Origin: an uncultured Rickettsiales bacterium
GTDB lineage: Bacteria; Pseudomonadota; Alphaproteobacteria; Rickettsiales; 21-14-0-20-44-7
Assembly: GCA_964545245.1 (NCBI GenBank)
Contig: CAZJFC010000004.1
Coordinates: forward strand, 1-56,720
Direction: 5' to 3'
Length of the DNA stretch: 56,720 nucleotides
Both the position numbers and the translations under genes were made by a program. The notes under the pieces are model-generated. The model was not told the DNA's origin, did no database searches, and was given only the letters and a program-made list of their open reading frames with translations. Shown piece by piece: positions 18,001 through 31,367 of this stretch. Each line of letters starts with the position of its first letter. The stretch's first letter is position 1.

Positions 18001-19218
18001 GAAACCGCCATTGCCGCCTTTCGCGCCGCCCTTCGCTTCGGTATGCCCACGGTAAACGGTTTTATCATCGCTCCAGAAAATTACTTCACCGCCATCACCT
18101 TTTACGATGGCGTTGGCTTTAACGACCGCGCCTTTCTCCACCGTTACATTACGCGCGTTTGGCGTTGCGCCCTTACCTAGATAATCACCACCAATTTTTA
18201 CGCTGCCACCTCCGCTATAGCCGGAAACATCGATTTTCACGGTGGATTTCAGCGTAATATCATCGGCGGTAATAACCACCGAGCCGCCTTTCTGTCCCGC
18301 CTTATTGCCCTTCGCATAAATTTCTGCGCCGACGATAACCTCCGACTTCCCTGCTTTCGGAGTCTTGGCGGAATTTACTCCGCTTGCGCCGATATAAATT
18401 TTCCCATTACGCTGGCCCACGGTATTCGCAACAACGCTTCCACGCACATCAACCAAACTGTTGACTACTTTACGTCCAGCAGCCGCGGTAATATGTATCT
18501 CTCCACCCGAAGCATTGATTGCACCAGTATTTTTCACAAGCTGGGATTTCACGCCATCACTGACTTTCACCTCTATCAGCCCATCACCATACATATCCAA
18601 CGTGAAACTATCACCGGATACAAGCTGCGCCTTACCCAGCTTGGCATTTATGGTTCCGCTGTTAGAAACATTCGGAGCAACCAGCCCCACCAGCCCTGCC
18701 TCCTTCACAGTAATGGTACCTTCGTTTATTACTGATGCATTCGGATCACCGGGTTTGGTGAACTTGATGTTTCCACCTTTCATGAATTGCTTGCTGTCCA
18801 CATCAGCAGTCGTAGCAACAATGCTGTTGACATCCACCTTGGAGCCTTTACCGAACATCACCCCATTCGGATTAACAAGTATGACATTTCCGTTCGCTGT
18901 CAACGTTCCCATTACCTTGGAAGGAGTGTTGCCACCAATACGGTTAAGTGCTATCGCACGACGGCCCGGCTGGTGGAATTGCGTGTGCTCATCAAGCTGA
19001 ATATTGAATTCACGCCAATCAATAACAACACGCTGTGATTTCTGGTGGATATCAAGCTTTTTACCCTTCTCGCTGATTGTGGCGGAACCGCCTTTTACCA
19101 CCCCTCCTTCCGGATTAGCCTGCACAGAAAACGGCAAGCCCACCATAAGCGCAATTGCGGTTGCCTGCCTAACACCAGACAGTATCGTGGAGGTCGTCAG
19201 TAATTGATGTGCGCTCAT
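1..19218 (-). CDS. Giant two-partner-secretion exoprotein (TpsA, filamentous-haemagglutinin-like adhesin); N-terminus at 19218, C-terminus beyond the left window edge (at least 6406 codons in window)
   Basis: ATG at 19218-19216. The reverse frame must stay open to nt 1, because a stop would have produced a listed minus-strand ORF; the listed minus ORFs here are all in another frame. Hand translation starts MSAHQLLTTSTILSGVRQATAIALMVGLPFSVQA/NPEGG, followed by TPS-domain blocks and then Gly-rich beta-helix-type repeats. The TpsB partner gene is adjacent. Confidence 0.92.
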   Translation of the reverse strand, partial: MSAHQLLTTSTILSGVRQATAIALMVGLPFSVQANPEGGVVKGGSATISEKGKKLDIHQKSQRVVIDWREFNIQLDEHTQFHQPGRRAIALNRIGGNTPSKVMGTLTANGNVILVNPNGVMFGKGSKVDVNSIVATTADVDSKQFMKGGNIKFTKPGDPNASVINEGTITVKEAGLVGLVAPNVSNSGTINAKLGKAQLVSGDSFTLDMYGDGLIEVKVSDGVKSQLVKNTGAINASGGEIHITAAAGRKVVNSLVDVRGSVVANTVGQRNGKIYIGASGVNSAKTPKAGKSEVIVGAEIYAKGNKAGQKGGSVVITADDITLKSTVKIDVSGYSGGGSVKIGGDYLGKGATPNARNVTVEKGAVVKANAIVKGDGGEVIFWSDDKTVYRGHTEAKGGAKGGNGGFVETSGKNKLTVGGLVFTTAPKGSTGTWLLDPANITITHSSIPGDEENTFSVAQLETMSIGSHINLIANDYINLDFGGDTLNVVADRNITLTATSGDIYTSSAGTINTTRTTTGGNVRFNAGRDIVLTDFDINSGGGNVILNSDTDGVSGGAIALINTNITSSGGNIILGGHDDPEFKAAKGTTTYNHGVHLSGSTLKSGTGNIKASGAGYNSGGQLYGVVLVDGSSIESTSGTINITGQGGSGGNQGNYGVFLSGTGANKITSTSGQIFITGYGGANKYTKNNYGVALNTGSLVESGNNISIIGYGNPATTGIDDGAASAYGVYVNGATIRATGGASIAVEGTGGAGTGANNHGVYLTNSGVIESDSGKIDVTGTGGSGDGGNNYGIYINNGSNAKITSTSGAIKLTGSGVAAGGTKNYGIILGTGVLVESGGNIEMSGTGGGGTNAYGLYLYGTLVKASGAGSIKLTGESASSRGLIITNGAEISSDTGDIEGNGIAGLNTGVLVDQSSKVTSNSGNIKLKGTVAATSGDDNYGVRLGSASIGTGGNIEIEGYGGGASKGYGVSNSGIIKTTGTGEIKVTGTGGAGTGVNNHGIVLTNTGKIESDSGKIEITGTGGSNAGGSNTGIFLVNSGTNTITSNTGAITLKGYGGSNTVGSGNHGVYLYTGSLVETGGDIEIEGEGGGSYSQGVRIEGAAVKASGGGKIHISGKGGNGDVNSNYGVLIQNSGHIQSDSGKIEVKGIGGGGIGGYNYGIYLASTGTNKITSNTGAIILKGTGGQNTGSADNRGVYLHGSNSLVQTGGDIEIEGTGGGSKGNGVLISAGVVKATGSGEIKITGIAGSGSDAENHGVVILSTGNIESDSGKIEVIGTGGSGAGGTNYGIYLSNSGTNKITSTSGKITLSGIGGQNAVGSNNYGVHLSTGSSIQTSGDIEIEGTGGGSTTSRGINLGGAKIKADGSGAIKLTGTGGGNGTGSTNYGVYLTGSSEVESGSGQIEITGMGGDGSGANNKGIYFNSSGTNKVISNSGNIKLVGYGGSYSNSSGNRAIDLDTGSLVETGGDIEVWGYSGPHGRGLQLTGGVIRATGAGEIRIFGEGGSVNGTGVSLTDDSSIESDSGKIEVTGLAGGGAGGKYGIHLSSIGINKITSNTGAIILKGDAGNKATASDNYGFFLNTNSLIQTGGNIDIEGKGVGNANGYGVYISGGTVKTTGTGEIKITGEGSNGAGAGNYGVHLNNSGVIESASGKVEITGTGGSGAGGTNYGIFLSGSAAKITSNTGKIVLKGYGGSDAAASDNYGVYLNAGSLVQTGGNIEIAGTSGGETNGWAVYMAGSTVKATGTGTITIDGEGSSGSGANNYGVFLTNSGKIESDSGKIEVTGTGGVEAGNGNTGIRIAAGHIKSTSGNINLSGNGGAIEDREVTNIYNHGVQLVHSNALIQTGGNIEIEGTAGGSKNGYGITVENGGTIKTTGTGEIKLTGEGGDGKGISNYGTLITTGSKVESEAGDITIIGTGGLESEEGSGGGVRINTNAVIKSTDGGDIRITGYGGTGADNNNGVEIRNGASILVDDGSIIEITGTRGEGADSYDIYTGTSGNGITIGDVTKANNIILNMDDYSIAGTVIQTSDEGSVTIRTRTDGRTIGINGGGDLDIANDFIGNITTGNLIIGSSKAGALTSNLASWGSNLTYLSGDDITIASAIDVDGDFTLTSSGAERFININDDISVGNNQNLTLTADDLEINGKLFGTGGELTLRTYSNNRHIYINRDAGAAIQISTPEVANIQNGWGKINLDHRDGGHNVFGDVTWYDPLSTSGSSSYLYGDIVGLDDASFNFGYSVVGKGSISSLTDITFGSLGVYWAGETYTINAGGTLKIGAVSRTYNNANSIGPVGGSVNATAKTINLTNTWQGHATYGELGTINLTAEDSIVLRKMTADNIFITTTGADSTITTGGLLTATNGGEITLAAAGDVLVNHNITGSGGDIIFNSDTDETNGGAIVLTNAVVDSGGGNIILGGGDDPLNKTALGNAANAYGILLDNSKLSSGAGDIKITGEGYGSGGVRYGVRLFNNSTIESDSGAIEVIGTGGAGNGTENYGVVLSQGSTNKITSNTGAITLKGYGGSNGTNKGYGVYLNSANSLVQTGGDINIEGIAGGTGNNGIGVVLNGGVVKATGTGSVKINGEGSGGTASSNHGVLLNNGGKIASDSGSIEVTGAGGSGTGGSNTGIQLSNTGTNKITSNTGEIILKGTGGQNAAGEYNYGVYLYTNSLVQTGGNIKIEGEGGGQSVIRGVSVNGATVKATGSGQITITGTGGAGSGYGVFIANSGIIESDSGKIEITGTGGGDSGGSNHGIYLSNSGTNKIISNTGAITLKGTGGQNAAGDNNYGVYLYTNSFVETADNIDIEGEGGGNNGGHGVYLNGGVVKTTGSGEVKIVATGGSGDGASNYGIHLNNSSVIESDSGKIEITGTGGSGSGGGNHGIFVNNSGKIKSNSGDIEMKGTGGIGAGGSHQGVYLGGSGSNEISSNTGNIKLIGYGTSNTAGSGIHAVSIQPNSSVQTGGNIEIEGISGNANGYGVYLKAATIKTAGTGEVKITGTGGAGTGAKNYGIYLNDSGIIESDSGKIEITGTGGGDSGGSNHGIYLSNSGTNKIISNTGAITLKGTGGQNAAGDNNYGVYLYTNSFVETADNIEIEGKGGGNNNGSGVYIEGSSVKATGTGSIKITGEGSNGAGSDNYGVYLNNSGVIESDSGAIAVTGTGGSGTGTTHNSGIYLSGTGINKIISNTGKITLKGTAGQNVSGENNSGVYLNSNSLVQTGGNIEIEGKGGGSGSGSHGVFIRKATVEATGTGEIKITGVVSDGAGNNNRGVMLSSNGKVESDSGKIEIIGTAGAGTNSGNMGVVLSGTSGTDNRITSNSGDIIVTGTGGGGSNSIGIYIGSAGTIDTVDGNIKLNGIGGSGPNGWHGIQFNNGGKVLAYGEGTIELTGTRGAAVGSYDIYSSEGSNVIGDINSANNIILNADNHSLSDIAIQTSDEGSVTIRPRTDGKTVSVNGGGGDLDVTSGLLDQITTGNLIVGSSKAGALTSNLASWGTNLTYLSGDNINIDSAIDVGGDFALTSSGAEKFININDDISVGNNKDLTLVADDIKIDGNLSGTGGRLWLGTYNSLATRVNSAGDGMQIDTDELARIQNGWGQIRIGYGGGNVHLGESTWYDPLLVKRPVYLKGDVTGLDDASLTFDGVINAYGGANISSLTDINLNNTVLMRTGGIITFNAGGNISFKGVTTSTGGAGGSITASADTISLNGAWKGDLAYGELGTIDLISVNALTLPEMQAENIYITVTGADQGITTGNKLTSVNGGEIILAAAGNVLVNHNVTGSGGDIIFNSDTDETDGGAIVLTSAVVDSGGGNIILGGGDDPENKAAKGKSGSTVGIHLTTGSKLSSGVGNITLTGASYTGGGTPQAIRLHDGSTIESDSGNITLTGVGDPASTGTSHGIILTGTGVNKIISNTGNIKLDGEGNSSATANTSGVMLHTNSLVQTGGDIEILGKGGGAASVQGVRIDGATVKTTGTGKIKINGEGSDGNNANKYGIALVNSGVIETATGQIDIFGTGGAGDGGGNYGVVLSDSGGNKVVSGSGNINIKAYGGSSLSGAGNSGLWVKAGALIQTGGNIDIEGKGGGGKQSSGVRIEGGTIQAKGSGNIKVHGTGGDGSIVEVFGNYGIVMAAAGQIKSDSGEIDITGIGGSGTNGLNYGIYLNNSANKITSTSGKITLNGTGGQNAAGDNNYGVYLYTGSLVQTGGNIEMEGKGGGNAYGYGVYINAATVKVTDSGEIEVTGEGGNGSGAHNYGVVQSNSGVIESDTGNIEVTGTGGTGAGGNNRGIYLTDAGTNKITSNTGKIMLKGTGGQNAAGSSNYGIILHTNSLVQTGGDIDIEGESGGNTTGYGVLLSSAKVKTTGEIVIKGYGSKQGTTTSNVGVGITGGGKVESTTGKITIYGEGGTGTHGNNGVNITGNILTTDGGDIDIYGKSTAVGDSSLVTGNYGILMNTGTVKTESTGNIRMEGIGSAASTDKFNIGVYVYNTSNIFTDEGDITITGTGGGFAPGANYGVGMSTGVNKITSTGGGDITVTAISPNSPAFSVSASDIIGDVSSDSDIELIFDSYTGVPASINTSADGSVTFRPYTDSKTIAVGSGAADILYSTALLSKVTTGNLIIGSSKAGALTSNLAEWGSNLTYLSNDNITIASAIEVDGDFVMTSSGAGKFININDAVTVGTGSDLTMTADDMGINANLTGDGGEITLRPYDSLRQTRINYGGGGLQLNTAEISKIQDGWGKINIGQSTAGMFIGDVTFYDPFYGIGTNIYLFNSIAGLDDASVNFTTGAASHIMLIGTDVSSLTDINLNGNIRTRSSDTNTFTAGGTLTFGGYITTSADLAGNPGGGAGASIIAATDTINFNGAWMGYVDGDLGTIDVTAVNSLLLPMMQAENIYITVTGSGNTITSNKLTAVNDGNITLTSDAITINDAIDGTGTLTLKPYTDGKTIGYASGSGVFKVDATELDKISTDWSHLVFGSSKAGKIMIGSYTWLNDLTFLGNSINFEGVEFKIGGNLTALSGSNIVVNGNIVKDSGDDADLILRADTGIAVTGTIKSTHNKLNIELNGDANNLDGGHARIEGAYIDSNGGDILVNGEGCSSYNYGVRLNAASKILSGDGDITITGVGYNDDDGNSRYGIGIADGSTVESTGGKITLNGTGGNGNGTKNYGVILNNDGVIKSDSGEIEITGTGGGGTGGSNYGIYLSDTGTNKITSNTGKIMLTGNGGNNASGSGNLGVYLKAGSLVQTEGDIEIEGAGSIAGTGQGVYITGGTVKTTGDGAIKITGQGGNGNASGNYGVVLDNSGKIESGSGSIEIEGTGGGGSGGNNRGIHLTGTGDNKIISDTGSIKLAGFGGTNISGSAHHGVHLNVGSLVQSGGNIEIEGKSGGGSNGQGVFIEGGTIKATGTGSIEITAESEAVGNQAHGLFIKGDGQIISDEGNIVITGTSHATTSSSNGGITFSSHGTTGNKVSSNSGDITIIGIGGAGDETANVGVYVGSKGIVESVSGYIKLTGTGGSNAGASGTHGIHLSGGAKITSSDSSTIELTGIKGAGADSYDIFADGTGNIIGNIAKANNVILNMDDYSIAGTVIQTNDAGSVTIRPRTDGKTVAVTSGAADVVYGTDLTNAITTGHLIIGSTKAGALTSNLASWASDLTFLSGNDITIASALDIGGNFLADAEQDVIVNAKIDKTTGDDAELWLKAKRNVLVNADITSNNNKLDVILNSDSDEIDGGRIAMTGATITTNGGDITLGGGDAPESKAAMGWAGNIEGIKLSASKLISGAGTVLVNGEGYDTGGSAYGVFLTGTSAIESDSGEIKVMGTGGAGDGGNNNGIYLSNTGTNKITSNTGKITLNGTGGQNMAGSNNSGIYLQGVTSLVQTGGDIEIEGKGGGINGTGILSTARIVNNGTGSITLEGHSGAGTDNNYGINISGRIEAGANSGKIKLSGTSYGTGDNNIGFRTSNGVISSLSGEDIIIFGQGSESALGKENHGVHLNGTTSLIENNTGKLSIEGIGGTGASSDGVRAGQTITSHGDIEIKGESTLSPGVRVGNRTIQALGGADVIIDGSSGSYFGVHLVSNGMIKSEQGDIKIKAYGGNTGFFTNSGANNEISTTGGNIEITTTNGFNTDNTGKFHAGGDGDIIIKNTDKRIYLTGSDISTANGDIILESTQSKNGGSSAILTGGVIKAGGTGKIEIKGTGGSEATGNNNIGVWIKGQIESASGDINITGIGTSTGGSKNHGVYISDSASVISTDDGDITITGTKGSGANSRDIAFETGHNVIGGGGTNNIIFNADNIGIISDTAAIGTASTGSVTFTPRTAETAINVAGGVGGLELTTGILDSITTGTLNIGREDGEGDINIGAYSNWGSDVYLVSGSGDITLTGAQDLDDNDFSAVTHDGANITLAAVTANSIFARTIGASDIIL
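9962..10196. repeat. Copy 1 of a perfect 235-bp direct repeat inside tpsA
   Basis: Base-for-base identical to 10823-11057 when the printed lines are aligned. The offset is 861 bp, which is 287 codons and therefore in frame. Confidence 0.9.
10823..11057. repeat. Copy 2 of the perfect 235-bp direct repeat inside tpsA
   Basis: Identical to 9962-10196. The flanks diverge at 9961/10822 and 10197/11058. Confidence 0.9.
18409..19218 (-). other. Signal peptide plus TPS (haemagglutination-activity) secretion domain of the TpsA protein
   Basis: Hand translation gives NPEGGVVKGGSATISEKGKKLDIHQKSQRVVIDWREFNIQLDEHTQFHQPGRRAIALNRIGGNTPSKVMGTLTANGNVILVNPNGVMFGKGSKVDV. These are the conserved NPxGG / FNI / ALNR / NPNG blocks of TPS domains. 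The C-terminal boundary is approximate. Confidence 0.8.
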
Positions 19219-19401
19219 CTTAACTTAAATTATCCGCCAGATACATTACAATTAGGTTAATTTATCATACAATTTGTGGATTTTTCTTAAACAGAACGAC
19301 TTATCCAAATCATTGTTTTATATGCTTTTTTAAAAATTGATGGCCTTTCTCGAACTTTTTGATTAAGGTCAGCCTGAAAATTTCTACTGGAAACATTAAT
19401 T

Positions 19402-21096
19402 TTGAAAATTATCACATATTTTCAGGGAGTTATGTTTGCGTCATTATCGTTGTTCACGGCTGCGTCCGTGGATGCCGTTGCGCAATCCCCAGTTGGGCCT
19501 GCGGATATTGACAGGATACGCAGTCTACAAGAAAGGTTTGTTGCGCCACAACCTGTTGACGAAACAGTGATTTCCAAACCTAAAGAGCAGCCGGTAGACG
19601 CACCCGAAGGGGCAGACGAAATCCTAATTACAATCAAATCCATAAAATTCAATGGAGTAACAGCTTTTTCCGAAGATGAGATTAAACCTATATATGAGGA
19701 ATATATTGGAAAGGAAACTACTCTGGATACTCTTTGGCTTGTTGCCCAACAGCTTACCAAAAAATACCATGCGCACGGCTACTCCCTATCTCGCGCCTAT
19801 ATCCCCGTACAGGAGGTAGAAGACGGTAATGTTTCCATAAATGTAGTTGAAGGCTTTATCAGCACTGTAGGATTTAGTAATAATGCCAAACCAAATAATC
19901 CAACAAAGCAAATCATTAACAGAATAATATCTCAAAAACCCTTAAATATACCTTCACTTGAAGATAGCTTATTAAAACTTAACGATCTACCTGGATATTC
20001 ATACCGCGCAATCATTGAAGCTGGAGAAGGCTTAGAGGATGATGGATCATTACATCTTACATTGATTCCGGTGGAAAAGCGCAGTGCCGGGCTTATCACT
20101 ATAGATAACTACGGCTCGCGTTACCTTGGCCCGCATGAAGTAACCGGAATTTACAGCACATCCTTACTTGATATAGCAGATATTACCGTATCCGGCCTTT
20201 TTACTCCGCACGATGATGAACTTAGATATGGCGGACTTAGCAATAAATTTTACCTCTTTCCAGAATTAAGCATCGAAACTTATGGTAGCTATACAACAGC
20301 AACTCCAGGATATTTATTGAAAATCAGCGAAATAGACAGCCAGTCCACAACCCTTGGTATCGCCGCTAAATACCAGCTCACACGGCAGCGTGAGTATAAT
20401 ATGGCGTTAAGACTTTCACTTGTAGGCAGGAACACCAACACTGATTTGATAAACACAGCATTAGTACGTGACCGCGTAAGAGTAGCCGGGATTGAGTTTT
20501 TAGCTGATTTTAGTGATCCTCTAGGGGGTTATAGCGACCTCAATTTCAAAATCAGTCGAGGGCTCGACATTTTTGGCGCCAGCCAGGAAGGAGAACTCAA
20601 CCTTTCCCGTGGTAAGGCAACACCGCATTTTACAAAAGTCCAGATTGATGCTGAACGTATACAAGCTTTGGATAATGATTGGTCTTTTGCAACAAAACTC
20701 TCAAGCCAGTGGTCTGACAACCCCTTGTTCTCATCAGAGCAATTTGGTTATGGCGGAATCAGCCTTGGAAGAGCCTATGACGCCTCTGAAATCACCGGGG
20801 ATTCTGGCCTTTCATTCTCATTCGAGCTTAGATATGACGGCTTGGGCCAATTCAGCTGGGTAGCTCTTACACCTTACGGTTTCTATGATATTGGCAAAAT
20901 CTGGAACAAAGATTCAACACAAGTACATCATCAAAGCGCATCCTCAGCTGGTTTTGGACTTCGGGCAGTAACAAACATTAATGTTTCGGCTGATATAGGT
21001 CTTGCCTATCCTCTTACACATGACATATCTGCCCCTCTTTACGGTGCTGACAAAGATGACCCGCGTTTACTATTCTCTATCAACTATAATTTTTAA
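19402..21096 (+). CDS. TpsB outer-membrane transporter (ShlB/FhaC/HecB family haemolysin secretion/activation protein)
   Basis: 564-aa ORF with a TTG start in the track; ATG at 19432 gives MFASLSLFTAASVDAVA/Q as a signal peptide. It has a POTRA-like N-terminal part and a beta-barrel-like C-terminus ending SINYNF. It is divergent from tpsA across a 183-bp AT-rich spacer. Confidence 0.85.
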   Translation: MKIITYFQGVMFASLSLFTAASVDAVAQSPVGPADIDRIRSLQERFVAPQPVDETVISKPKEQPVDAPEGADEILITIKSIKFNGVTAFSEDEIKPIYEEYIGKETTLDTLWLVAQQLTKKYHAHGYSLSRAYIPVQEVEDGNVSINVVEGFISTVGFSNNAKPNNPTKQIINRIISQKPLNIPSLEDSLLKLNDLPGYSYRAIIEAGEGLEDDGSLHLTLIPVEKRSAGLITIDNYGSRYLGPHEVTGIYSTSLLDIADITVSGLFTPHDDELRYGGLSNKFYLFPELSIETYGSYTTATPGYLLKISEIDSQSTTLGIAAKYQLTRQREYNMALRLSLVGRNTNTDLINTALVRDRVRVAGIEFLADFSDPLGGYSDLNFKISRGLDIFGASQEGELNLSRGKATPHFTKVQIDAERIQALDNDWSFATKLSSQWSDNPLFSSEQFGYGGISLGRAYDASEITGDSGLSFSFELRYDGLGQFSWVALTPYGFYDIGKIWNKDSTQVHHQSASSAGFGLRAVTNINVSADIGLAYPLTHDISAPLYGADKDDPRLLFSINYNF

Positions 21097-21313: not shown

Positions 21314-23209
21314 TTACCTTCCGGAGGCAAACGCTTCCGCCTGCCGTACAGGCACAGGAAATTCCCCGATCGTCTCCAAGAACATCTGGCCGTAACGCTC
21401 GATCTTCTTTTCACCGACACCGTTTATTTCCCTTAGTTCCATCAACGAGCGCGGCTTGACTGATGCCATCTCGTGCAGCGTCCTGTCGTGGAAGATCACA
21501 TAAGGCGGCAGGTTCTGCGCCTTGGCCAGTGTCAAACGCAGGGCTTTGAGCGCAACAAGCAAAGCCGCGTCATCGGAATGCACCACTGGCGTTTCCGTGC
21601 GCGGCTTCTTCATCGCCTTGGCAGGAACCGCCGCAAGCAATGCGCGTAACGCAAGCCTTGGTTTTTCCCGCAAAAACACCTGACCGGAGGGCGTTACCTT
21701 CAGGCCGCCATGCCCGGTGATATCCACCATAAGCAGGTTCTGCGCCGTCAGTTGCCGGAAAATACCCTGCCATTCCTGCTTGGAGAATTCCGTGCCAACA
21801 CCGAAGGTCGGAAGCCGGTCATGCCCGAAGCGCGCCATGCGCTCGTCGCTCTTGCCAGTCAGCACATTTATGAGATACGCGACACCGAAACGCTGCCCGG
21901 TACGCAATACGCACGAAATCGCCTTCAACGCCGCCACCGTGCCATCGAAGGTTTCCGGCTGTTCCAGACAGGTATCGCAATTACCACATGGCGAGGAAGA
22001 TTCCCCGAAATAGTCAAGCAACACCTGCCTTCGGCATCCCGCCGCTTCGCACAATCCTAGTAGCGCGTTCAGCTTCTGGTGCTCAACGCGCTTCTGGTTA
22101 TCGGGTGCATCACCGCCATCAATGAAGCTGCGCTGCTGCGCCGCATCGCCCATCCCATACAGCATCAGCGCTTCCGATGGTAAGCCGTCACGCCCGGCTC
22201 GTCCGGTTTCCTGATAATAGGCTTCGATATTCTTGGGAATACCCATATGAGCGACGAAGCGTACATCCGGCTTGTCAATGCCCATGCCAAACGCAACAGT
22301 GGCCACCATCACCAGCCCTTCCTCGCGCAGGAAACGCTCCTGATGCCGCTGACGCGTCTGCGAATCCAGCCCGGCGTGATAGGGCAACGCCGGGACACCT
22401 TCCCTGCATAGCCACTGCGCCATATCATCGGTCTGGCTGCGCGACAGGCAATATACAATCCCGCTTTCGCCCGCATGGCCCTCCCTGATGAAACGCAGAA
22501 CCTGCTGCTTCGGGTTATCCTTCACCGCGATGCGGTAATGGATGTTCGGACGATCGAACCCGGCAACGAACACGCGCCCGTCCTGAAGATGCAGCTTCTC
22601 CACTATATCCTTACGCGTCGGCGCATCGGCGGTAGCTGTCAGCGCTATCCTCGGTACACCGGGAAAGCGTTCAACCAGTAGCGTGAGCTGTGTGTAGTGC
22701 GGACGGAAATCATGTCCCCACTGCGACACGCAGTGCGCCTCGTCAATCGCAAACAGTGCAATACGGGATTCGGCCAGCAACGCCAGGAAATCCTCCATGA
22801 GCAGGCGCTCCGGCGCGACATATACCATATCGAGCGTACCATCGCGTATGCCGCACTTGGCCATTGCCACCGCTTCCCGCGGAAGGTTGGAGTTGATAGC
22901 CGCCGCCCTGACGCCCAGTTCCTTAAGTGCATCAACCTGATCCTGCATCAGCGCTATCAGCGGCGAGACTATAATCCCCACCCCGTCACGCACCAGCGCA
23001 GGAATCTGGTAGCACAGCGACTTGCCGCCGCCGGTCGGCATCAGCACGAACGCATTGCCACCGCCGCTCACATGGCTGATGATCTCTGCCTGTTGCCCGC
23101 GGAACCGGTCATAACCGTAGGTCTTTTTCAGTATCTCAAGAGCCGTATCCATGAATGTCATACCCATGTTATAAAACCTGTTTCCGCGGCTGGTAATGGT
23201 ATAAAACAA
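21314..23209 (-). CDS. recQ: ATP-dependent DNA helicase RecQ
   Basis: MPTGGGKSLCYQIPAL (Walker A), FAIDEAHCVSQWGHDFRP (DEAH box), a CGNCDTC zinc motif and a C-terminal HRDC-like region. The true start is probably an internal Met at about 23152-23167 (MDTALEILKKTYGY...). Confidence 0.93.
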   Translation of the reverse strand: MFYTITSRGNRFYNMGMTFMDTALEILKKTYGYDRFRGQQAEIISHVSGGGNAFVLMPTGGGKSLCYQIPALVRDGVGIIVSPLIALMQDQVDALKELGVRAAAINSNLPREAVAMAKCGIRDGTLDMVYVAPERLLMEDFLALLAESRIALFAIDEAHCVSQWGHDFRPHYTQLTLLVERFPGVPRIALTATADAPTRKDIVEKLHLQDGRVFVAGFDRPNIHYRIAVKDNPKQQVLRFIREGHAGESGIVYCLSRSQTDDMAQWLCREGVPALPYHAGLDSQTRQRHQERFLREEGLVMVATVAFGMGIDKPDVRFVAHMGIPKNIEAYYQETGRAGRDGLPSEALMLYGMGDAAQQRSFIDGGDAPDNQKRVEHQKLNALLGLCEAAGCRRQVLLDYFGESSSPCGNCDTCLEQPETFDGTVAALKAISCVLRTGQRFGVAYLINVLTGKSDERMARFGHDRLPTFGVGTEFSKQEWQGIFRQLTAQNLLMVDITGHGGLKVTPSGQVFLREKPRLALRALLAAVPAKAMKKPRTETPVVHSDDAALLVALKALRLTLAKAQNLPPYVIFHDRTLHEMASVKPRSLMELREINGVGEKKIERYGQMFLETIGEFPVPVRQAEAFASGR

Positions 23210-23473
23210 CCCTATGCGTGGATGCCTGCCGTTAAATTCGGCTGCCGGAAACCAAGCTGGGAAAGAAATTCAAATCTGCCGAAATTTAATGAGATAAGAA
23301 AACGTTACATAGCGGCATTGCGTGAAACAGATGGCAGAAATTGCGAGCCGCTGTTGGCATTTGCAGAATCGTAGCACACTAGTTTACCCTGAACTATAGT
23401 AAACAGTACGAATAGCGCCACCAGCAGCCCTCCTTAGGGCGCATAGACCAAATATCTCTAAACACTGGGAAAA

Positions 23474-23550
23474 TGGTGGGGCGAGAGGGATTTGAACCCC
23501 CGACCAAGGCGTTATGAGCGCCCTGCTACTAACCGCTGAGCTATCGCCCC
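23474..23550 (-). tRNA. tRNA with CAU anticodon (elongator tRNA-Met, or tRNA-Ile2 if lysidine-modified)
   Basis: The reverse complement is GGGGCGATAGCTCAGCGGTTAGTAGCAGGGCGCTCATAACGCCTTGGTCGGGGGTTCAAATCCCTCTCGCCCCACCA. It has a 7-bp acceptor stem, a CTCATAA anticodon loop, a TTCAAAT T-loop and an encoded CCA. The paired 1:72 position argues against an initiator tRNA. Confidence 0.9.
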
Positions 23551-23615
23551 AGCTAAAAGTCTGGATAGATAATAATCATGATTAAATCAACTCTTTTATG
23601 ACTTCTGAAGATCAA

Positions 23616-23927
23616 TCAGAGTACACCATCACTAATCATGACGTTAACACTTTGGCGGCAATAGTTATAACCGTTATACCAGGCAACTTCATATTGATAA
23701 TTGCCAACCATACTATCATCTCGTTTATAGCCATAAAAACTCTTATAAAAATGGTTCCCAAACACCGCATACCCGGTATGGCAACCGTCATCCCAACCTT
23801 GTTTATAGGCCGGATCTGCCCCCTCTGGAGAATTGGAACGTATCTTGTCGTACCACGGTATAGTTGGGTCAAAATATTTGCACCCGGAAATCGCTATAAC
23901 ACATAATACCAGAAGTGCTTTAAGCAT
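23616..23927 (-). CDS. Small lipoprotein, paralog 5 of 5
   Basis: Lipobox AISGC. Motifs are DPAYKQGWDDGCHTGY ... YEVAWYNGYNYC. Its start overlaps the stop of paralog 4 by 1 nt (TAATG). Confidence 0.7.
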   Translation of the reverse strand: MLKALLVLCVIAISGCKYFDPTIPWYDKIRSNSPEGADPAYKQGWDDGCHTGYAVFGNHFYKSFYGYKRDDSMVGNYQYEVAWYNGYNYCRQSVNVMISDGVL

Positions 23928-24244
23928 TAATCCATACCTCCGGTATAAAAATCATGAGTCTGCCATTTAGCGTTATAGTGCCTGCAATAATCAAAAGCCT
24001 CGTGCCACGCAGCATTATAATGTGGGTTGTGAAGCATTCTGTAATCCTGATAAAAATTATAGAACATTTTCTGTATAGCAGTGCCATATGCAGCAATCCC
24101 ACTTTGGCAACCATCTTCCCAGCCCCTTTTAAATTCAGGTGTTCCGGGGACATCAGTAGACATAAATAAAGGACTTGGACCAGACCACACACATGAGGTT
24201 CCTAGCAGAGCAACTATAATCAAAAATATATTCTTTATTACCAT
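23927..24244 (-). CDS. Small secreted protein or lipoprotein, paralog 4 of 5
   Basis: Signal peptide MVIKNIFLIIVALLGTSC with a non-canonical lipobox. Motifs are TPEFKRGWEDGCQSGI ... YNAAWHEAFDYC. Confidence 0.7.
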   Translation of the reverse strand: MVIKNIFLIIVALLGTSCVWSGPSPLFMSTDVPGTPEFKRGWEDGCQSGIAAYGTAIQKMFYNFYQDYRMLHNPHYNAAWHEAFDYCRHYNAKWQTHDFYTGGMD

Positions 24245-24759
24245 CCTCCCATCACTCCGCTAATACCGTCTTCATTACTTCCCATAAAGACGTTATCGCC
24301 ACCTCCCATTAAAGAATCAACCCCGCCACCGCCTAAAAAGCTATATCCCCGGCTTTCGGTTGATGCACCATAAAATGGAACTGAATTTGTCGTAGGATCA
24401 ACACAATCATCTCCCAGACCATCCAGAGAGCACCATGCTTCCATGTTACGGAATGAATAAGCGAATATATATGTCCGACAGAAATTCTCTGAATCCTTCC
24501 AAGCTTTGTAATATACCGGATTCGTAACCAATGAAGGGTTCTGGCGGAAAGCAAAAGTGGTACGGTAAAAATCGTTACCATGCGCCGCAATCCCTGTTTC
24601 ACATCCATCAAGCCATCCTTCCCTGAACTCTGCAGGGCCACCTTCCGGTGGCCCAGGCATAAATGGCGGTAAAGTTGGGCGAACGCCCCCAGTGCTACCC
24701 AACCCGCAGGAAACAAGTACCGAAAACACGCACATAAGTAACCACTTTCTCTTTCTCAT
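24238..24759 (-). CDS. Small lipoprotein, paralog 3 of 5, with a Gly-rich C-terminal extension
   Basis: I prefer the internal Met at 24759 (MRKRKWLLMCVFSVLVSCG, lipobox) over the track start at 24840. This gives an ATGA stop/start overlap with paralog 2. Motifs are PAEFREGWLDGCETGI ... YYKAWKDSENFC. Confidence 0.7.
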   Translation of the reverse strand: MRKRKWLLMCVFSVLVSCGLGSTGGVRPTLPPFMPGPPEGGPAEFREGWLDGCETGIAAHGNDFYRTTFAFRQNPSLVTNPVYYKAWKDSENFCRTYIFAYSFRNMEAWCSLDGLGDDCVDPTTNSVPFYGASTESRGYSFLGGGGVDSLMGGGDNVFMGSNEDGISGVMGGW

Positions 24760-25154
24760 AAAGGTGATTGCCCTGAATGGTTCCATTGCCTGTTGTAAAC
24801 GAAATACCACATGTAACAATAGTTCCAGGCATCCTTCCAAATTTGGTTATACATTACATTATTTGTGTAGCGTGGGTCCACATGAACACCACCTTGCTGG
24901 GTTCTGATAAAACTGTTACTGGCATAGGCAGATAATGCCGACTTACAGCCATCAGTATAACCCTGACGATATTCTGGTGGCCCGTAATCAACTTCAGTGT
25001 CAAGCAAGAGCGGTTTCGGGTTGTTGATTGGATCAACGCCACAACTAGCAAGCAACAGAACTGCAACCGCTACTACGACTGAATTAAGAGTATGCAGCAG
25101 AACTGCCTTATTCCGGCGCCCTATCCAACTCAAACTTGCAATAAAAATACCCAT
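24756..25154 (-). CDS. Small lipoprotein, paralog 2 of 5
   Basis: Lipobox LLLASC, then PPEYRQGYTDGCKSAL ... YNQIWKDAWNYC. Its 5' end overlaps the upstream paralog by 47 nt, so the start is uncertain. Confidence 0.65.
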   Translation of the reverse strand: MGIFIASLSWIGRRNKAVLLHTLNSVVVAVAVLLLASCGVDPINNPKPLLLDTEVDYGPPEYRQGYTDGCKSALSAYASNSFIRTQQGGVHVDPRYTNNVMYNQIWKDAWNYCYMWYFVYNRQWNHSGQSPL

Positions 25155-25419
25155 CTTTCCACGCTTTATAGTAAACAGAATCGTTTAATGCCTTATCTAC
25201 ATCATAATAAACTTCATTGTACATCAAGTTATAAAATCCTCCCCCAGAGGCCGTAGAGGCCGTTTTACACCCGTCAATTATCCCCTGCTGATAGTTGGGG
25301 GGACCATCAGGAGGAAAATTTGTAGCAAACATTGGGCCAGGAAACATGCCAACCGGACCGCAAGCCGCCATAGCCAATATTAGCCCCAATAGTGCACATC
25401 TAGCCATTGAATCCATCAT
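25108..25419 (-). CDS. Small lipoprotein, paralog 1 of 5 (unrecognised family with conserved Cys residues)
   Basis: Signal peptide with lipobox LAMAAC, then the shared motifs PPNYQQGIIDGCKTAS ... YYKAWKDGYFYC. Confidence 0.7.
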   Translation of the reverse strand: MMDSMARCALLGLILAMAACGPVGMFPGPMFATNFPPDGPPNYQQGIIDGCKTASTASGGGFYNLMYNEVYYDVDKALNDSVYYKAWKDGYFYCKFELDRAPE

Positions 25420-25470
25420 ACCTTATGAATATTGCAGTTTTGTGATATATAGATGCAATTTGATGATTAT

Positions 25471-26077
25471 CTAAGAAGAACATGAAACTTCTATATGTCT
25501 TGCCCACTCTGGGGGATCATTAGAATAACCATCAAATTCCTCTTGTTCTTCCGTTGGTATTCTCAATATTTTCAACAACTTATCGATCTCAGAATAATCC
25601 CTTTCATCTTCTGCCTTGCGTATAGCTTGTTCCGCAAGGTAATTACGGAGAATATATTTAGGATTAGACTTCAGCATTAACTCACGGTTTGGAAGGGTTG
25701 CCCTTTCTTTATAAAGCCTAAACCACGGCTCATAACTTTCAGTATCATCAAACTTATGGCTTAGTTCTTCACCTTTCGAAAATCTACGAAAAAAATTTGT
25801 ATAATCCACATTATTTATTTCCATTAAATCAAGCAAACTTTTTACCAGATGTATATCGTCCGGATGCGTATCTTCTAACCCCAGTTTTGCACGCATCAGC
25901 TCTAAATAATGCTCAGCAAGCACAGGCTGATATTTTTCAAGAATTTTAGCGACCTGCTCCAGAGGCAATAATGGCTCAAATGCCTGGGCCAATAGGCGAC
26001 GGAGCAACTTCACTAAAAAAGTTTTTCCCTAAACTGTAAAATCTACTTGCATATGGAAGATTGGCGACATCAAGCAT
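25471..26077 (-). pseudogene. selO: selO (YdiU/UPF0061 protein adenylyltransferase) remnant with an internal deletion of the catalytic core
   Basis: The 180-codon C-terminal part (...NPKYILRNYLAEQAIRKAE... ending HIEVSCSS) looks like the SelO C-terminus. In another frame, 26077-25976 encodes MLDVANLPYASRFYSLGKNFFSEVAPSPIGPGI*, which looks like the SelO N-terminus. About 270 codons between the two parts are missing and the parts are out of frame. Confidence 0.7.
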
Positions 26078-26094
26078 TTTTCTTAGTCTGCTTA

Positions 26095-27024
26095 TCATCC
26101 ACTCACTTCTAATGCTTTTATAATCGCAGGCGAGATAATCAAAGTAATAAGCGCAATCAACATTAAGGGTATAGTGTAAACAGCAATCTTGGCTGGCAAT
26201 TTACCAGCTTTTTCTTCTGCAAGCATCATTCTCGTCTGCCGGTAATCATCAGAAAGAACACGCAAAGTATCCACAAGGCTTGTACCAAATTTTTCTGATT
26301 GTAGTAGCGCAGCAACTAATGATTTAAACGCTAACAAGTCGGTCCGCTTACCTAAATTAAGGAGCGCCTTTTCCCGGTCATTTAGCATCGTCAATTCCAG
26401 ACGGGTTTTATTAAGCTCCTGCGTAATCTCAGGATGGCTATATTTTAACTCCTTGCAAACACGTGCCAAAGAGACATCAAGCGCCAAGCCAGATTCGACA
26501 CAAACTAGCAATAAATCCAGTGAATCAGGAAAAGAGCGCAGTAGAATTTTTTTCCTGTTTTCAATTGCACCTTGTATCCATAAGTGCGCACCAAATGAAA
26601 CCATCGCCGCTAGAAAAACTCCATTGGCTAAGATTACCCAAAACATCGTCCCTTCATGGGATTGCGCTACAAGATATATTAGAAAAAATATCGCAATTCC
26701 TATAATCCATCCAAAAGTAGAAAAGAATATATAATAACTTACAGCATCTGGAGACGCGGCTCCCGCCTGATATAGATGCAATTCTATACTTTCCCTGTCA
26801 TCACTGGCATTACGAAACGGAACCGTAAGACCTTCAAGCGCAACAGCCAAGGAAGAACGTTCTTGCTGATAATCCTGCTGTATCTCAATAAAACCTTCAT
26901 CTGTATCAGTTAAGCTTTGCACGCGCTTTTTTCTTAACTTATCCTCCCCCATCATCGATTTAGCTACTCTCAAGGTTAGCGTAAAAACGACTACAAACAC
27001 CAGTATAGCAATAACAATATTCAT
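26095..27024 (-). CDS. tadC: Tad pilus inner-membrane platform protein TadC (T2SS F-domain family)
   Basis: 309 aa and polytopic, with T2SSF-like helices. It lies last in the cpa/tad operon order and overlaps tadB by 1 nt. Confidence 0.8.
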   Translation of the reverse strand: MNIVIAILVFVVVFTLTLRVAKSMMGEDKLRKKRVQSLTDTDEGFIEIQQDYQQERSSLAVALEGLTVPFRNASDDRESIELHLYQAGAASPDAVSYYIFFSTFGWIIGIAIFFLIYLVAQSHEGTMFWVILANGVFLAAMVSFGAHLWIQGAIENRKKILLRSFPDSLDLLLVCVESGLALDVSLARVCKELKYSHPEITQELNKTRLELTMLNDREKALLNLGKRTDLLAFKSLVAALLQSEKFGTSLVDTLRVLSDDYRQTRMMLAEEKAGKLPAKIAVYTIPLMLIALITLIISPAIIKALEVSG

Positions 27025-27986
27025 CAGATGTCCAAATCAGTAAGTTTTTTTGTTATATATATTGAAGCTACAATCATAATCAAGGCAACAGTAAGACATA
27101 TATTCCCCGCTGTAGTCTCAAACAACGGATCAAGATATTCTTTTGAAGAAAATCTTACAAATGTCATCTGAAGCAAAGGAATAGCTGCAAAAATTTTTGC
27201 CGTTATCCGCCCTTCAGCAGTCAATGCATTGATCTTTAATTTTAGCTGTTTACGCTTACGAATTATCGTTGAAAGATTTGTAAGAACTTCGGCAAGATTT
27301 CCTCCAGTTTCTTGTTGTACGGATAAAATAACAACAAAGAAATTAACATCCATCAGCCCTATCCTGTCAGCCATTTTTCTTAATGCTTCAGGCATTGGCC
27401 GTCCATAGGATACTTCGTTAATCACTCTTTGAAACTCAGTACTAATAGGCGGTTCAGCATTCTGTGCTATAAGGCGCATCGATGAAATAAGCGGGTGTCC
27501 TGATTTTACACTCCTAACCATCATATCAATTGCATCTGGAAAATGATTAAGAAAGTAATCATTTCTTTTTTCCAGTTTTCGATTCAGCCTAGTGCCATTA
27601 TAATAGAGGATTGCAACCAATCCTATACATACCGCGTATAGTGGTGATTTCAGAAAATAAAATGCCAAAAAACTAACAACAATCCCCACCAGTAACAAAT
27701 AAAATAAGTGAGCACTAAAACTTGTAACATCTCCTGCTTGCTGGAGTTTTCGGTATATGTTACCAAAAAAAGGTACCCCCACTATTTTCTCAGCGAAGAC
27801 CTCTTCCCTTTTAGCAGCCAGCAAATACGATTCACTGTTCTCATCAGAAAAATCTCCCCGTGTAATATTCTCAAGGGATTTTTTTTGATACCTTGACGAT
27901 TTATCGGACAATAACCTTGACAGCAGAAGAAACACCACAACAAACGCAGCAAGAGTAATAACAAATAACAGGACCTTTTGATTCAT
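27024..27986 (-). CDS. tadB: Tad pilus inner-membrane platform protein TadB
   Basis: 320 aa membrane protein paralogous to TadC, located immediately downstream of the ATPase gene. Confidence 0.8.
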   Translation of the reverse strand: MNQKVLLFVITLAAFVVVFLLLSRLLSDKSSRYQKKSLENITRGDFSDENSESYLLAAKREEVFAEKIVGVPFFGNIYRKLQQAGDVTSFSAHLFYLLLVGIVVSFLAFYFLKSPLYAVCIGLVAILYYNGTRLNRKLEKRNDYFLNHFPDAIDMMVRSVKSGHPLISSMRLIAQNAEPPISTEFQRVINEVSYGRPMPEALRKMADRIGLMDVNFFVVILSVQQETGGNLAEVLTNLSTIIRKRKQLKLKINALTAEGRITAKIFAAIPLLQMTFVRFSSKEYLDPLFETTAGNICLTVALIMIVASIYITKKLTDLDI

Positions 27987-28053
27987 TTTAAGCTATTCTT
28001 CCACCGTTTTTTTGTATTATTGAGTCTACGCGCAAAATATCAAACGGCAAGAA

Positions 28054-29568
28054 TTATTGCGAATTGAACTCCAAACAGCGCTCCATTTCCTTGGTAAGGC
28101 CAAAATAATCGATTTGCGAGGCAAACCTTGGACGCAGTTTTGCCGACTTATACTTCCCACGAAGCCTACCATCCTCACCCATTTGTCCTGATTCGAATGA
28201 GAAAAGCTCCTGTAGCGAAATAACATCAGTTTCTATACCAACTACTTCAGTAATGCTGGTTACCCTTCTTCCGCCATCCCGCATACGCTGCACCTGCACA
28301 ATAAGGTCCACAGCGCTGGCTATCTGATGCCTCATGGCCGCAATGGGTAAATTAACCCCTGACAAACCAATCAGGTTCTCCAATCTTGTCAGACAATCTC
28401 TTGGTGTATTCGCGTGTATGGTAGCCATCGACCCTTCATGACCTGTATTCATAGCCTGTAACACATCTATAACTTCCTCTCCACGAATCTCACCAAGAAT
28501 AATACGGTCCGGTCTCATCCTCAATGCGTTTTTTAATAACGCACGCTGAGTGATGGCTCCTACCCCTTCCATGTTGGGTGGCCTAGTTTCCAAACGTAGT
28601 ACATGGGGCTGCCCTAACTGCAACTCTGCAGCATCTTCTATAGTAATGACACGCTCCCCTACATCAATATGCTGCGATAATGCATTTAACAGGGTAGTCT
28701 TACCAGAACCAGTTCCGCCGGAAACCAAAATACTTAGCCTACTGGCACCACAGATTTTCAGAAAATTACACATATTTTCTGACATAGAGCCCAAGCCGAC
28801 ATAGTCATCAAGTGACATCTTATTCTTTTTAAATTTACGTATCGAAACAAGTGCTCCATCAATTGCTAATGGAGGAATAATAGCATTAAAACGTGACCCA
28901 TCAGGCATACGAGCATCCACCATAGGGCTGGACTCATCCACCCTGCGCCCCACCTGAGAAACAATTTTTTGTATAATATTGATTAGATGATGCTCTCCGT
29001 TAAAATTCAGGTCAGTGATATAGATTTTACCAAATTTCTCTACGTACACCTGTTTTGATGTATTAATCATTATATCTGATATATCTGGGTCGTTCAGCAA
29101 TTTCTCCAACGGTCCAAACCCTCTTACATCATCTATAATCTGGCTCTTCATCAAATCTAACTGCTGCTGGTTTAAGGGCAGAGACAAATCGTCAAAAATT
29201 TTGATCGTAAATTGATTGATTTTATCAATTTGCTGTTCCTTAGGAAGGGAGTTAATCAAGCCAAAGTTAAATCTTTCAATAAGAACTTCAAATACAAGAC
29301 TTTTAGATTTCTTATACGCCTCTGACTCTAGCTTAGCATCTGTATAGATAAGTTTTTCGCGCACATCTTCCTGATTGGGTATAAATACACCACCCAATTT
29401 TTTAACAGACTGGCCTAAAACTTCAGCATTTGGAGCAAAATTCCCTATCGCAGCATTAGCAGGATCAGCATTTTGGAAAACAGGAATATCAGGTTTTAAT
29501 ACCTCGTTAACAGGTTTAGGCAAATCCTTATCTGTTTCTATCTTTTTTTTTCCGAACATTTTAATCAC
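28054..29568 (-). CDS. cpaF: Tad/Flp pilus assembly ATPase CpaF/TadA
   Basis: Walker [17 protein letters not shown], a VirB11/GspE-type secretion ATPase core (ITIEDAAEL ... [12 protein letters not shown]) and 504 aa. Confidence 0.92.
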
Positions 29569-30721
29569 CCACGGATTCTTGTTTCATTTCAGATATAGAG
29601 CTAGCTATCTCCAGAAACTGGCGGTTTAATACGCTGTTTCCAATTTCAATCGCAGTTTTCCCCTGATTCTCAGCCATTGTAATTGTTTTGCTATCGTTTG
29701 TTATATAGTGGGAGATTTTTTTCTTGCATACTGCAGCAAATTCAGCCGGGGTAATAGCTTCCTTAAATTTTGAACCGCTACGGTTAAGTATTAATGATAT
29801 CTTTGATGTAAACACACTGTTTGACTGCATGGCATCAAGAAACCTGGATGCATGCGTTGCCGACTTAAGCCATAATTGAGAAACAAGATAATTATGATCT
29901 ACTTCCTTTAGGACAGTGGCAACCCACTCGCTCCATATATGTGGCAAGTCCAAGATAACATATTTATATCTGGATTTTAGTGTATACAATAAATTACCTA
30001 TCATATTAGGTGTGATATTAGGCACGAACCTTAAATTCTTGGGAGCCGCAATCACACTAAGATTATCTTTGTACGGAATCGCAGTTTTCTCTAATAAGGT
30101 AAGATCAATTGAACCTTCAGGATGCTCGTAAAGTTCTCTGATGCCATAACTCGCTGGCAAATCTAAATCCCTTGCTAACATCCCAAATTGGTAATCCATA
30201 TCAACGATTACAACTTTCTGCTGCAGTTCTTTAGCTAACTGATATGCAACATTAAGGGCCACTGTAGTAGCCCCATCTCCTGATGCAGAAGACATAAACG
30301 AGATGATCTTACCACCCGCATTTGTCAAGGCAGGCTTTGGGTTTTCAATATTATTTCTAAAAAAGGCACCCTTAATATCCTGTATGCTTGCAGGTTTAGT
30401 AAAATATTCTGCCACACCTTTTTGTAATAACTGTCTATACAAATTTAAGTCATTTGTATGCCCCATTATAACAACTTTTGTATTCTCGACGCAGTGTTGC
30501 GCCAGTTCATCAATCTCAGGGATAGCCTCAGCCCCACGATTTCCTATATCTATTAATAAATATAACGGGATAAATTTATCATTCGTTGCTAAAAAAGAAA
30601 CAACATCAAGAGGTGTCCCGTGAATGATTTTTGGCTCAACGAAACCCATTTCCGCTGCTACATTATCAGCTAGCTCGGCCGACTCTACATCCTGCACAAC
30701 CGCAAGAAAACTCATAACCAA
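29561..30721 (-). CDS. cpaE: Pilus assembly protein CpaE/TadZ (receiver-like N-domain plus ParA/MinD-type ATPase domain)
   Basis: The N-terminal part is receiver-like (KVVIMGHTNDLNLYRQLLQKGVAEYFTKP). The C-terminal part is ParA-like (ISFMSSASGDGATTVALNVAYQLA). Its operon position is between cpaD and cpaF. Confidence 0.82.
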   Translation of the reverse strand: MVMSFLAVVQDVESAELADNVAAEMGFVEPKIIHGTPLDVVSFLATNDKFIPLYLLIDIGNRGAEAIPEIDELAQHCVENTKVVIMGHTNDLNLYRQLLQKGVAEYFTKPASIQDIKGAFFRNNIENPKPALTNAGGKIISFMSSASGDGATTVALNVAYQLAKELQQKVVIVDMDYQFGMLARDLDLPASYGIRELYEHPEGSIDLTLLEKTAIPYKDNLSVIAAPKNLRFVPNITPNMIGNLLYTLKSRYKYVILDLPHIWSEWVATVLKEVDHNYLVSQLWLKSATHASRFLDAMQSNSVFTSKISLILNRSGSKFKEAITPAEFAAVCKKKISHYITNDSKTITMAENQGKTAIEIGNSVLNRQFLEIASSISEMKQESVGD

Positions 30722-30782
30722 AATTCCTAATTTTACAGTATTTCTATACTAGTATGATGTTTAACAGAGAATAGTTAAATAT

Positions 30783-31367
30783 TTATTGACCGCTGGTACT
30801 TATGGTATCCAAGGATATAGTATCACGAGACAAGTAAGTATCATAGTTCTGAGCAGCCTTTTGACCATCATACCCACCCAGCAATAATGGATCAACAAAT
30901 TGTCTTTTGTCTGAAACCATTTGAACCTGATTTGCAGCTACCGAACAGCCGAAAGTCACATGATTAAGATTATAAGGGTTATTATGGTTGGTGATGTATC
31001 TTGACTCACAGTCACGTGCGACCACATTTTGGAATGATAGGGCAACGCGATTACCAATACCACTAGTCGTGTTATATGGTATATTGTTTCTAGTCAGGAT
31101 TTCAACAGCCTTTGCACAGAATAACCGGTTGGAACAAGTTAACTCGGCAGATGTTGGTTGCTTGGAACCTGCAATTGACTCAAGTTGAATAATACCATTC
31201 CTCTGTGCCAAATCGATAGTGATTTCTTCATTAGAAACCTCAAGCAATGATTCAGGTTGCCCCCGTTCTACATAAGCCTTGCCAGGAATTTGGCTACATG
31301 CGACTAAAGCAGATAACAACGCTAAATTTAAAATTTTTATAGTCTTACTTTTCATACAAATCCTCAC
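30783..31367 (-). CDS. cpaD: Pilus biogenesis lipoprotein CpaD
   Basis: Lipobox LSALVACS and a C-terminal FGCSVAANQVQMVSDKRQFVDPLLLGGYDGQKAAQNYDTY segment resembling the CpaD signature. It sits directly after the secretin gene. Confidence 0.7.
   Translation of the reverse strand: MRICMKSKTIKILNLALLSALVACSQIPGKAYVERGQPESLLEVSNEEITIDLAQRNGIIQLESIAGSKQPTSAELTCSNRLFCAKAVEILTRNNIPYNTTSGIGNRVALSFQNVVARDCESRYITNHNNPYNLNHVTFGCSVAANQVQMVSDKRQFVDPLLLGGYDGQKAAQNYDTYLSRDTISLDTISTSGQ

Follow-up and report, generated by a model that had tools for sequence, protein, structure and literature searches.

A stretch of 56,720 nucleotides (nt) from contig CAZJFC010000004.1 of an uncultured Rickettsiales bacterium (hereafter, the window) carries, at positions 23616-25419, five consecutive minus-strand open reading frames (ORFs), which we refer to as g5, g4, g3, g2, and g1 and which, according to the ORF listing, encode products of 103, 132, 173, 105, and 103 amino acids (aa), respectively. 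These products are paralogues of one another, have the N-terminal hallmarks of lipoproteins, and may act together as a single complex of the cell envelope. The five genes lie as follows:

25108-25419, minus strand: g5, first gene (103 aa; 99 aa from the second plausible ATG)
24756-25154, minus strand: g4, second gene (132 aa from its ATG, the start codon being uncertain; lipobox LLASC)
24238-24759, minus strand: g3, third gene (173 aa from its ATG; helical core in the predicted structure and an extra Cys pair, C..DG..DDC)
23927-24244, minus strand: g2, fourth gene (105 aa; atypical lipobox GTSC with the conserved Cys)
23616-23927, minus strand: g1, fifth gene (103 aa; lipobox ISGC; GGAGG located 9 nt upstream of the start)

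As read from the sequence, neighboring genes overlap at all four junctions. More specifically, g5 and g4 share 47 nt if g4 starts at its ATG; the start of g3 and the stop of g4 are combined in ATGA at 24756-24759; g3 and g2 overlap by 7 nt (ATGGTAA at 24238-24244); and the start of g1 and the stop of g2 coincide in TAATG at 23927. A sequence-only reading that preceded our analysis had described five overlapping, paralogous lipoprotein-type genes on the minus strand here, and its coordinates, as well as the TAATG and ATGA junctions, were all confirmed; the g3/g2 overlap was absent from its list. We detected no convincing terminator between the five-gene set and the transfer RNA (tRNA) gene that lies beyond it, the promoter scan returned fewer promoter-like sites than expected from shuffled sequence (3 versus 7.6), and the tRNA was the sole match in the Rfam scan. 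An alternative-frame ORF inside g3 (24333-24755, minus strand) is 39-40% identical to the same frame in the homologous loci L005 and L006 (E values of 4e-15 and 8e-7, respectively, in a tiny database); this conservation is most likely a by-product of the nucleotide conservation of g3.

By sequence comparison, the relatedness of the five paralogues is far beyond chance. They match one another at 48-69 bits in BLASTP comparisons, the identity of the other paralogues to g1 is 24-34%, and each of the five matches the family hidden Markov model (HMM) with an E value of 1e-33 to 1e-38. When the five were aligned with MAFFT, the invariant positions comprised the lipobox Cys, two Pro residues following it (P..P), and the elements G..DGC and Y...W......C. 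Thus, the core motif proposed in the sequence-only reading persists in a proper multiple alignment and was right in detail, except for D in place of N in g5 and a weak middle element (F/Y-Y) in g4.

Each of the five window products has an N-terminal signal peptide terminating in a lipobox Cys, made up of a positively charged n-region, a hydrophobic h-region, and a lipobox with Cys at +1, as looked for in lipoproteins. Four regular lipoboxes and an odd fifth had been noted previously; the signal peptide and lipobox Cys in fact occur in all five, and the odd site, GTSC in g2, keeps the conserved Cys. All 81 aligned family members (81 of 81) retain this Cys. A lipobox-like site is present in 188 of 236 family sequences, 141 of which carry the strict pattern, and many of the others represent N-terminally truncated metagenome calls. 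LPAM_1, the Pfam lipid attachment site, is the only Pfam model that members match (6 members). In these respects, the family resembles bacterial lipoproteins processed by Lgt, LspA, and Lnt, i.e., a signal peptide and a lipobox with an invariant Cys precede small mature domains that would face the periplasm; the mature domain, however, falls into none of the lipoprotein families described so far.

Family-wide, residues G, G, C, Y, W, and C are invariant and one D is nearly so. Mature sequences contain three Cys in 151 of 188 cases and five in 29 of 188, so that extra Cys occur in pairs in addition to the anchor, which fits a disulfide. The suggestion that the two conserved non-lipobox Cys form such a bond is therefore in keeping with the alignment, in which both are invariant. 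A different use of the same residues is conceivable, namely, that the two Cys, together with Asp, Tyr, and Trp, make up the active or metal site of a periplasmic thiol, redox, or metal-binding unit, given that a purely structural domain often tolerates more change than this set of invariant and near-invariant residues displays. However, there is no CxxC or known metal motif, no likeness to Dsb, thioredoxin, CopC, or CusF was apparent, the even-numbered extra Cys fit disulfides, and a catalytic or metal-binding role leaves five paralogues in fixed order unexplained. We consider this possibility quite improbable.

The third gene, g3, encodes a tail rich in Gly, Asp, Asn, and aromatic residues that ends in Trp and is predicted to be disordered, so the Gly-rich tail previously ascribed to one paralogue is real. 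The tail-bearing orthologues of g3 are P0010, P0013, P0016, and P0020. Overall, the tail that one member per set carries consists of 17% G, 8% D, 7% F, 7% N, and 4% W, and its C-terminal residue is W or F in 22 of 55 cases.

We then found no described family to which these proteins could be assigned. None of the five products matched Pfam, NCBIfam, or PHROGs, 81 family members scanned singly against Pfam at E ≤ 10 yielded nothing beyond LPAM_1, the family profile had no match among Protein Data Bank (PDB) sequences, literature and accession searches revealed no account of the family, and look-ups of the members' clusters returned no name other than "hypothetical protein." The claim that the motif belongs to an unrecognized family has thus withstood profile searches. 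For structural comparison, g3 was modeled by AlphaFold2 with an alignment of 81 sequences. The predicted local distance difference test score (pLDDT) exceeded 90 for about residues 31-105, with helices at 43-60, 63-68, and 81-106, and was below 50 over much of residues 130-173, i.e., the tail. Comparison of folds returned no match for the predicted structure. By these comparisons of sequences and models, the family and its predicted fold are new to the databases queried.

One candidate relative, DUF2799 (PF10973), was tried and rejected. Like the family described here, DUF2799 comprises small proteobacterial lipoproteins with helix-rich domains, and its motif (W..G..DG..G and Y..G...G...YC) superficially resembles ours (Y..GW.DGC..G and Y..AW.D...YC), a likeness that served as the lead. 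In contrast to our family, its motif spacing is different and it is not known to occur in sets of five. Alignment by hhalign to 25 genuine DUF2799 proteins covered only the signal peptide and lipobox (16 columns; probability, 56%), and hmmscan of the 81 members at E ≤ 10 gave no PF10973 match.

Homologues are numerous in uncultured material. We recovered 89 from a collection clustered at 90%, all either without a name or "hypothetical," and the family matched 834 clusters at 50% identity at E ≤ 1e-3 (323 at E ≤ 1e-10). Scanning the GTDB species representatives with the alignment of the g5 orthogroup as the query revealed 18 loci, all in metagenome-assembled genomes (MAGs) labeled Alphaproteobacteria, Rickettsiales, Rickettsiaceae, Hyphomicrobiales, or Proteobacteria; members of the family come only from MAGs and metagenome contigs.

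A scan with the family HMM found exactly five family domains, in tandem and on one strand, in 19 of 19 fully covered loci, including the window. Four of these loci (the window, L004, L005, and L006), which we term Type A, have the order g5, g4, g3 (long), g2, g1, and the positional best match holds in 12 of 12 comparisons at every position. In the 15 other loci, termed Type B, the long-tailed member comes last, positional orthology is 60-90%, and position 1 corresponds to g5. The conserved order and orthology indicate that the duplications predate the divergence of these lineages. The most conserved orthogroup is that of g5 (52% mean column identity in an alignment of 26 orthologues; core, FPPxGPPNYQQGxxDGC...VYYKAWKDGYFYCK), and g5 itself is the positional orthologue of gene 1 in L004, L005, and L006 (58-63% identity), as well as of position 1 in the Type B loci. 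Orthologues of g4 in L004-L006 are 47-56% identical, those of g2 are 50-59% identical, and those of g1 are 40-45% identical in L004-L006 (74% for P0011).

Adjacent members are also fused naturally, at two different junctions and in different lineages, with the downstream domain lacking a lipobox. P0003 and P0090, whose mutual identity is 56%, each join g2 to g1 and have lost the lipobox of the second domain, whereas positions 2 and 3 are fused in P0103, P0136, and L025 (L025:6899-7528); accordingly, L025 and L026 have four genes, the second of which encodes two domains. L024 alone among the loci seen lacks a set of five; on this alphaproteobacterial metagenome contig, a single family member (7956-8315) lies between rpoD and an aldehyde dehydrogenase gene.

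These data bear directly on the earlier proposal that the genes constitute a lineage-specific, diversified surface array for host interaction, immunity, or inhibition. Orthologues in the window and in L004 or L006 are 45-61% identical, and the adjacent Tad proteins of the same genome pairs are 43-68% identical. Thus, neither the copy-number variation, nor the lineage-specific expansion, nor the accelerated divergence that mark contingency arrays was found in the 19 loci; the copy number is fixed, the order is conserved, and divergence equals that of the Tad proteins. Since copy number does not change and divergence is not fast, a variable host-interaction or immunity array is disfavored. A related idea is that the five products are separate periplasmic or surface binders, either inhibitors or immunity-like proteins, each with its own target. 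Small size, secretion, probable stabilization by disulfides, strong differences among the paralogues outside the core (24-34% identity), and the nearby genes for a giant two-partner-secretion exoprotein and its transporter would suit that idea. Nevertheless, the absence of copy-number variation and the strict positional orthology speak against it, as do a rate of divergence no faster than that of the Tad proteins, the fusions of neighbors (which argue for joint action), and the lack of a cognate toxin gene in the operon. Lysozyme inhibitors would be obvious examples of such binders. MliC/PliC, PliI, and PliG are beta-rich, unlike the all-alpha fold predicted here, and for Ivy, MliC/PliC, PliI, and PliG we obtained neither a Pfam match nor a PDB sequence or fold match to the predicted all-helical core. 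We regard five independent binders as an unlikely explanation.

Immediately around the set, we identified the following features:

23474-23550, minus strand: tRNA(CAT) gene, 66 nt downstream of g1 on the same strand (ARAGORN and Rfam; labeled tRNA-Met(CAT) by ARAGORN)
25471-26013, minus strand: selO remnant, C-terminal 180 codons (matching only positions 301-465 of the 466-position SelO profile)
26095-33798, minus strand: tad/cpa pilus operon upstream of the set, with cpaB/rcpC, the rcpA secretin gene, a gene of 194 aa, a tadZ-like ATPase gene, tadA, tadB, and tadC (Pfam)

Although labeled as tRNA-Met, the tRNA has as its best Escherichia coli match a gene annotated by PGAP as "tRNA-Ile" with a CAT anticodon, and judging from this similarity, it is probably the lysidine-dependent tRNA-Ile2 rather than tRNA-Met. 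Nine genomes, representing both arrangement types, carry the same tRNA species directly downstream of the set and in the same orientation (the window, L005, L006, L008, L010, L011, L012, L016, and L020), with a mean tRNA identity of 90%; it is the one widely conserved neighbor of the set. We searched for a functional neighbor conserved across all loci and found none among protein-coding genes, whose contexts vary by lineage.

The tRNA gene had previously been regarded as a tRNA-Met integration hotspot, and the array could accordingly be cargo of a genomic island inserted there. This idea draws on the adjacency of the set to the tRNA(CAT) gene, on the truncation of the neighboring selO, and on a nearby fall in GC content from about 0.50 to about 0.42. 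Yet this tRNA is found behind the set in nine genomes and in both arrangement types, the window shares the tad-selO-set synteny with L004 and L006, and it contains no att-like repeat, no second copy of the tRNA 3' end, no notable repeats around the set, and no integrase-sized ORF between recQ and tadC (23209-26095). Moreover, positions 1-24000 of the window, with the giant gene and recQ, have a GC content of about 0.48-0.52, compared with about 0.38-0.47 for positions 24000-56720, so the step falls at the Gly-rich giant ORF and recQ and not at the lipoprotein set, whose GC content (0.43) matches that of the tad side (0.38-0.44). The island idea is effectively refuted, and we assign it next to no probability.

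Profile matches confirmed the dead selO and the same-strand tad operon that had been noted as neighbors. L004 and L006 carry an intact selO (451 and 469 aa, respectively) at the same position, and the remnant in the window is separated from tadC by 82 nt; because this gap is so short, the N-terminal ~290 codons of selO would have been deleted rather than frameshifted. By this comparison of sequences, selO loss is a lineage-specific deletion in the window. Within the tad operon, the 194-aa gene (30783-31367, minus strand) has counterparts of 56-62% identity in L004 and L006 and no Pfam match; likewise, genes of 248 and 270 aa without a Pfam match adjoin the secretin gene at L001:4282-5840 (a CG11 MAG).

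Linkage to tad had been offered as a functional clue, and it raises the possibility that the set serves as an accessory of type IV filament machines (Tad, type IV pili [T4P], or type II secretion systems [T2SS]), e.g., as a lipoprotein docking or pilotin-like ring for the secretin that is cotranscribed with tadC here. In the window, L004, and L006, tad is found directly upstream of the set in the same orientation; at L005, prepilin peptidase and secretin genes are found 1-3 kb upstream; at L023, a gene for a pilin-like protein (N_methyl and Laminin_G_3) is immediately upstream on the same strand; and at L019, genes for pilT/pilU-like ATPases are adjacent on the opposite strand, amounting to four independent contexts out of roughly a dozen. 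PulS/OutS pilotins are small helical outer-membrane lipoproteins with a disulfide, and the present proteins resemble them as small lipoproteins, predicted to be helical, whose genes adjoin secretin or tad genes in a few genomes. Pilotins, in contrast, are encoded by single genes rather than by sets of five, and the secretin linkage is mostly missing here: only the window, L004, L006, and L005 have a secretin gene at a distance of about 7 kb or less, and the flanks of most other loci contain none. Furthermore, the tad-selO-set arrangement is confined to the window's own clade (the window, L004, and L006), in which selO intervenes between tadC and the set, no sequence or fold likeness to PulS/OutS or another pilotin was detected, and the conserved partner is a tRNA gene and not a secretin gene. 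Most loci lack filament-related neighbors altogether. In five genomes, the set instead follows ribE-ribBA-ribH-nusB-thiL; at another locus, it lies between tamA-tamB upstream and a TolC-like gene downstream; elsewhere, it is flanked by tolB and a gene for a BON protein or by flgB-flgC-fliE-fliQ; and tatC is among the neighbors of loci without type IV filament genes. A dedicated filament accessory is therefore doubtful, and the clue taken from tad linkage does not extend beyond those three loci.

Further neighbors include virB9/virB10 or pilT/pilU on the opposite strand at some loci and a YdbH-like gene downstream of the set in L004. The recurrence of envelope-spanning systems in the flanks is suggestive but weak. 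At the other end of the window, an ORF of >6408 codons (1-19224, minus strand) runs off the window start; its product is 20% Gly and contains no Cys, and its N-terminus has, by eye, the look of a TPS domain. Divergent from it is a gene for a ShlB/FhaC-type TpsB transporter (POTRA_2 and ShlB; 19402-21096, plus strand), and the pair looks like a very large filamentous-haemagglutinin-like exoprotein system.

Regarding the organism, the sequence-only reading had assumed a host-associated bacterium, which we could not establish. The window's GuaA shares 74-77% identity with proteins encoded by metagenome contigs on which family members also occur and only about 67% with those of named organisms, such as Tepidicaulis, Kordiimonas, Parvibaculum, and "Candidatus Odyssella." All carriers are MAGs or metagenome contigs, some of them with aquatic-looking labels, such as the groundwater-type CG11 and the Tara-type ERR598976.

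Taken together, we judge the odds to be slightly in favor of an obligate five-subunit periplasmic lipoprotein complex that is vertically inherited and has a housekeeping role in the envelope. On this reading, five ancient and non-interchangeable paralogues of a previously unrecognized lipoprotein family would be expressed from one operon with overlapping start and stop codons. In each mature protein, an N-terminal lipid anchor would be followed by a short, conserved linker rich in Pro and by a compact helical domain of ~70 residues, the two invariant Cys of which would probably form a disulfide, either within a domain or between subunits. The products may then assemble 1:1:1:1:1 into one hetero-oligomeric complex that the lipid anchors would tether to a membrane face of the periplasm. 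Because none of the five has Asp at +2, the inner leaflet of the outer membrane is the most likely location. From there, the disordered tail of g3 could reach peptidoglycan, an outer-membrane protein, or a trans-envelope machine. The complex would thus represent an envelope component of the uncultured alphaproteobacterial clade labeled "Rickettsiales," for which a structural or docking role is favored.

Four observations suggest that the products form one complex: the number five is invariant, the order of the members is conserved, their genes overlap, and neighbors have been fused twice independently. In addition, the occurrence of the same tRNA downstream in nine genomes and of thiL upstream in five indicates housekeeping synteny. 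If this interpretation is correct, the set is neither a variable array for host interaction nor the cargo of an island nor a component dedicated to Tad.

Several points count against such a complex. Assembly is deduced from the genes, and a fixed number and order would also fit five separate, individually essential functions; the single copy in L024 apparently indicates that a lone domain can suffice in some setting; and the disulfide could lie either within a subunit or between subunits. The model of the natural g2::g1 fusion P0003, used as a stand-in for a heterodimer, was poor (pLDDT of 56), its alignment being lopsided because MAFFT had set g1-type and g2-type sequences on one half. Likewise, the window sequence is present in three metagenome DNA runs and in no RNA run, which provides no support for expression, and the +2 sorting rule stems from E. 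coli and may not hold in this bacterium.

Beyond the five-subunit complex as such, we tentatively suggest, as a possibility well short of even odds, a hetero-pentamer, e.g., a ring or platform at the periplasmic side of the outer membrane, that would be a core envelope structure of a deep, uncultured Rickettsiales-related clade of Alphaproteobacteria. It could provide a new tether between the outer membrane and the wall or a docking site for Tad, the flagellum, Tol, or Tam, with a fold that has no known relative. Small periplasmic lipoproteins made from one operon are a familiar general kind, and the BamBCDE lipoproteins and LptE exemplify the principle proposed here, i.e., several lipoproteins made together into one housekeeping envelope complex. 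Those subunits have unrelated folds and bind a beta-barrel, whereas the present proteins are paralogues of one tiny domain, predicted to be helical, and no barrel is encoded in the operon. To our knowledge, a fixed overlapping operon of five lipoprotein paralogues has not been described before, and as far as the sequences compared indicate, an architecture with a fixed number of five paralogues is out of the ordinary.

Complexes of envelope lipoproteins play a central part in building and stabilizing the outer membrane, and almost all known examples stem from a small number of model organisms. From the signature described here, in which the paralogues number five, keep a fixed order, have overlapping genes, and are occasionally fused, a defined heteromeric complex can be predicted for a large Rickettsiales-related group among the uncultured Alphaproteobacteria. 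The family merits a database entry, since every member is now annotated as "hypothetical protein," and if the proposed complex exists, it would constitute a new module of the Gram-negative envelope machinery.

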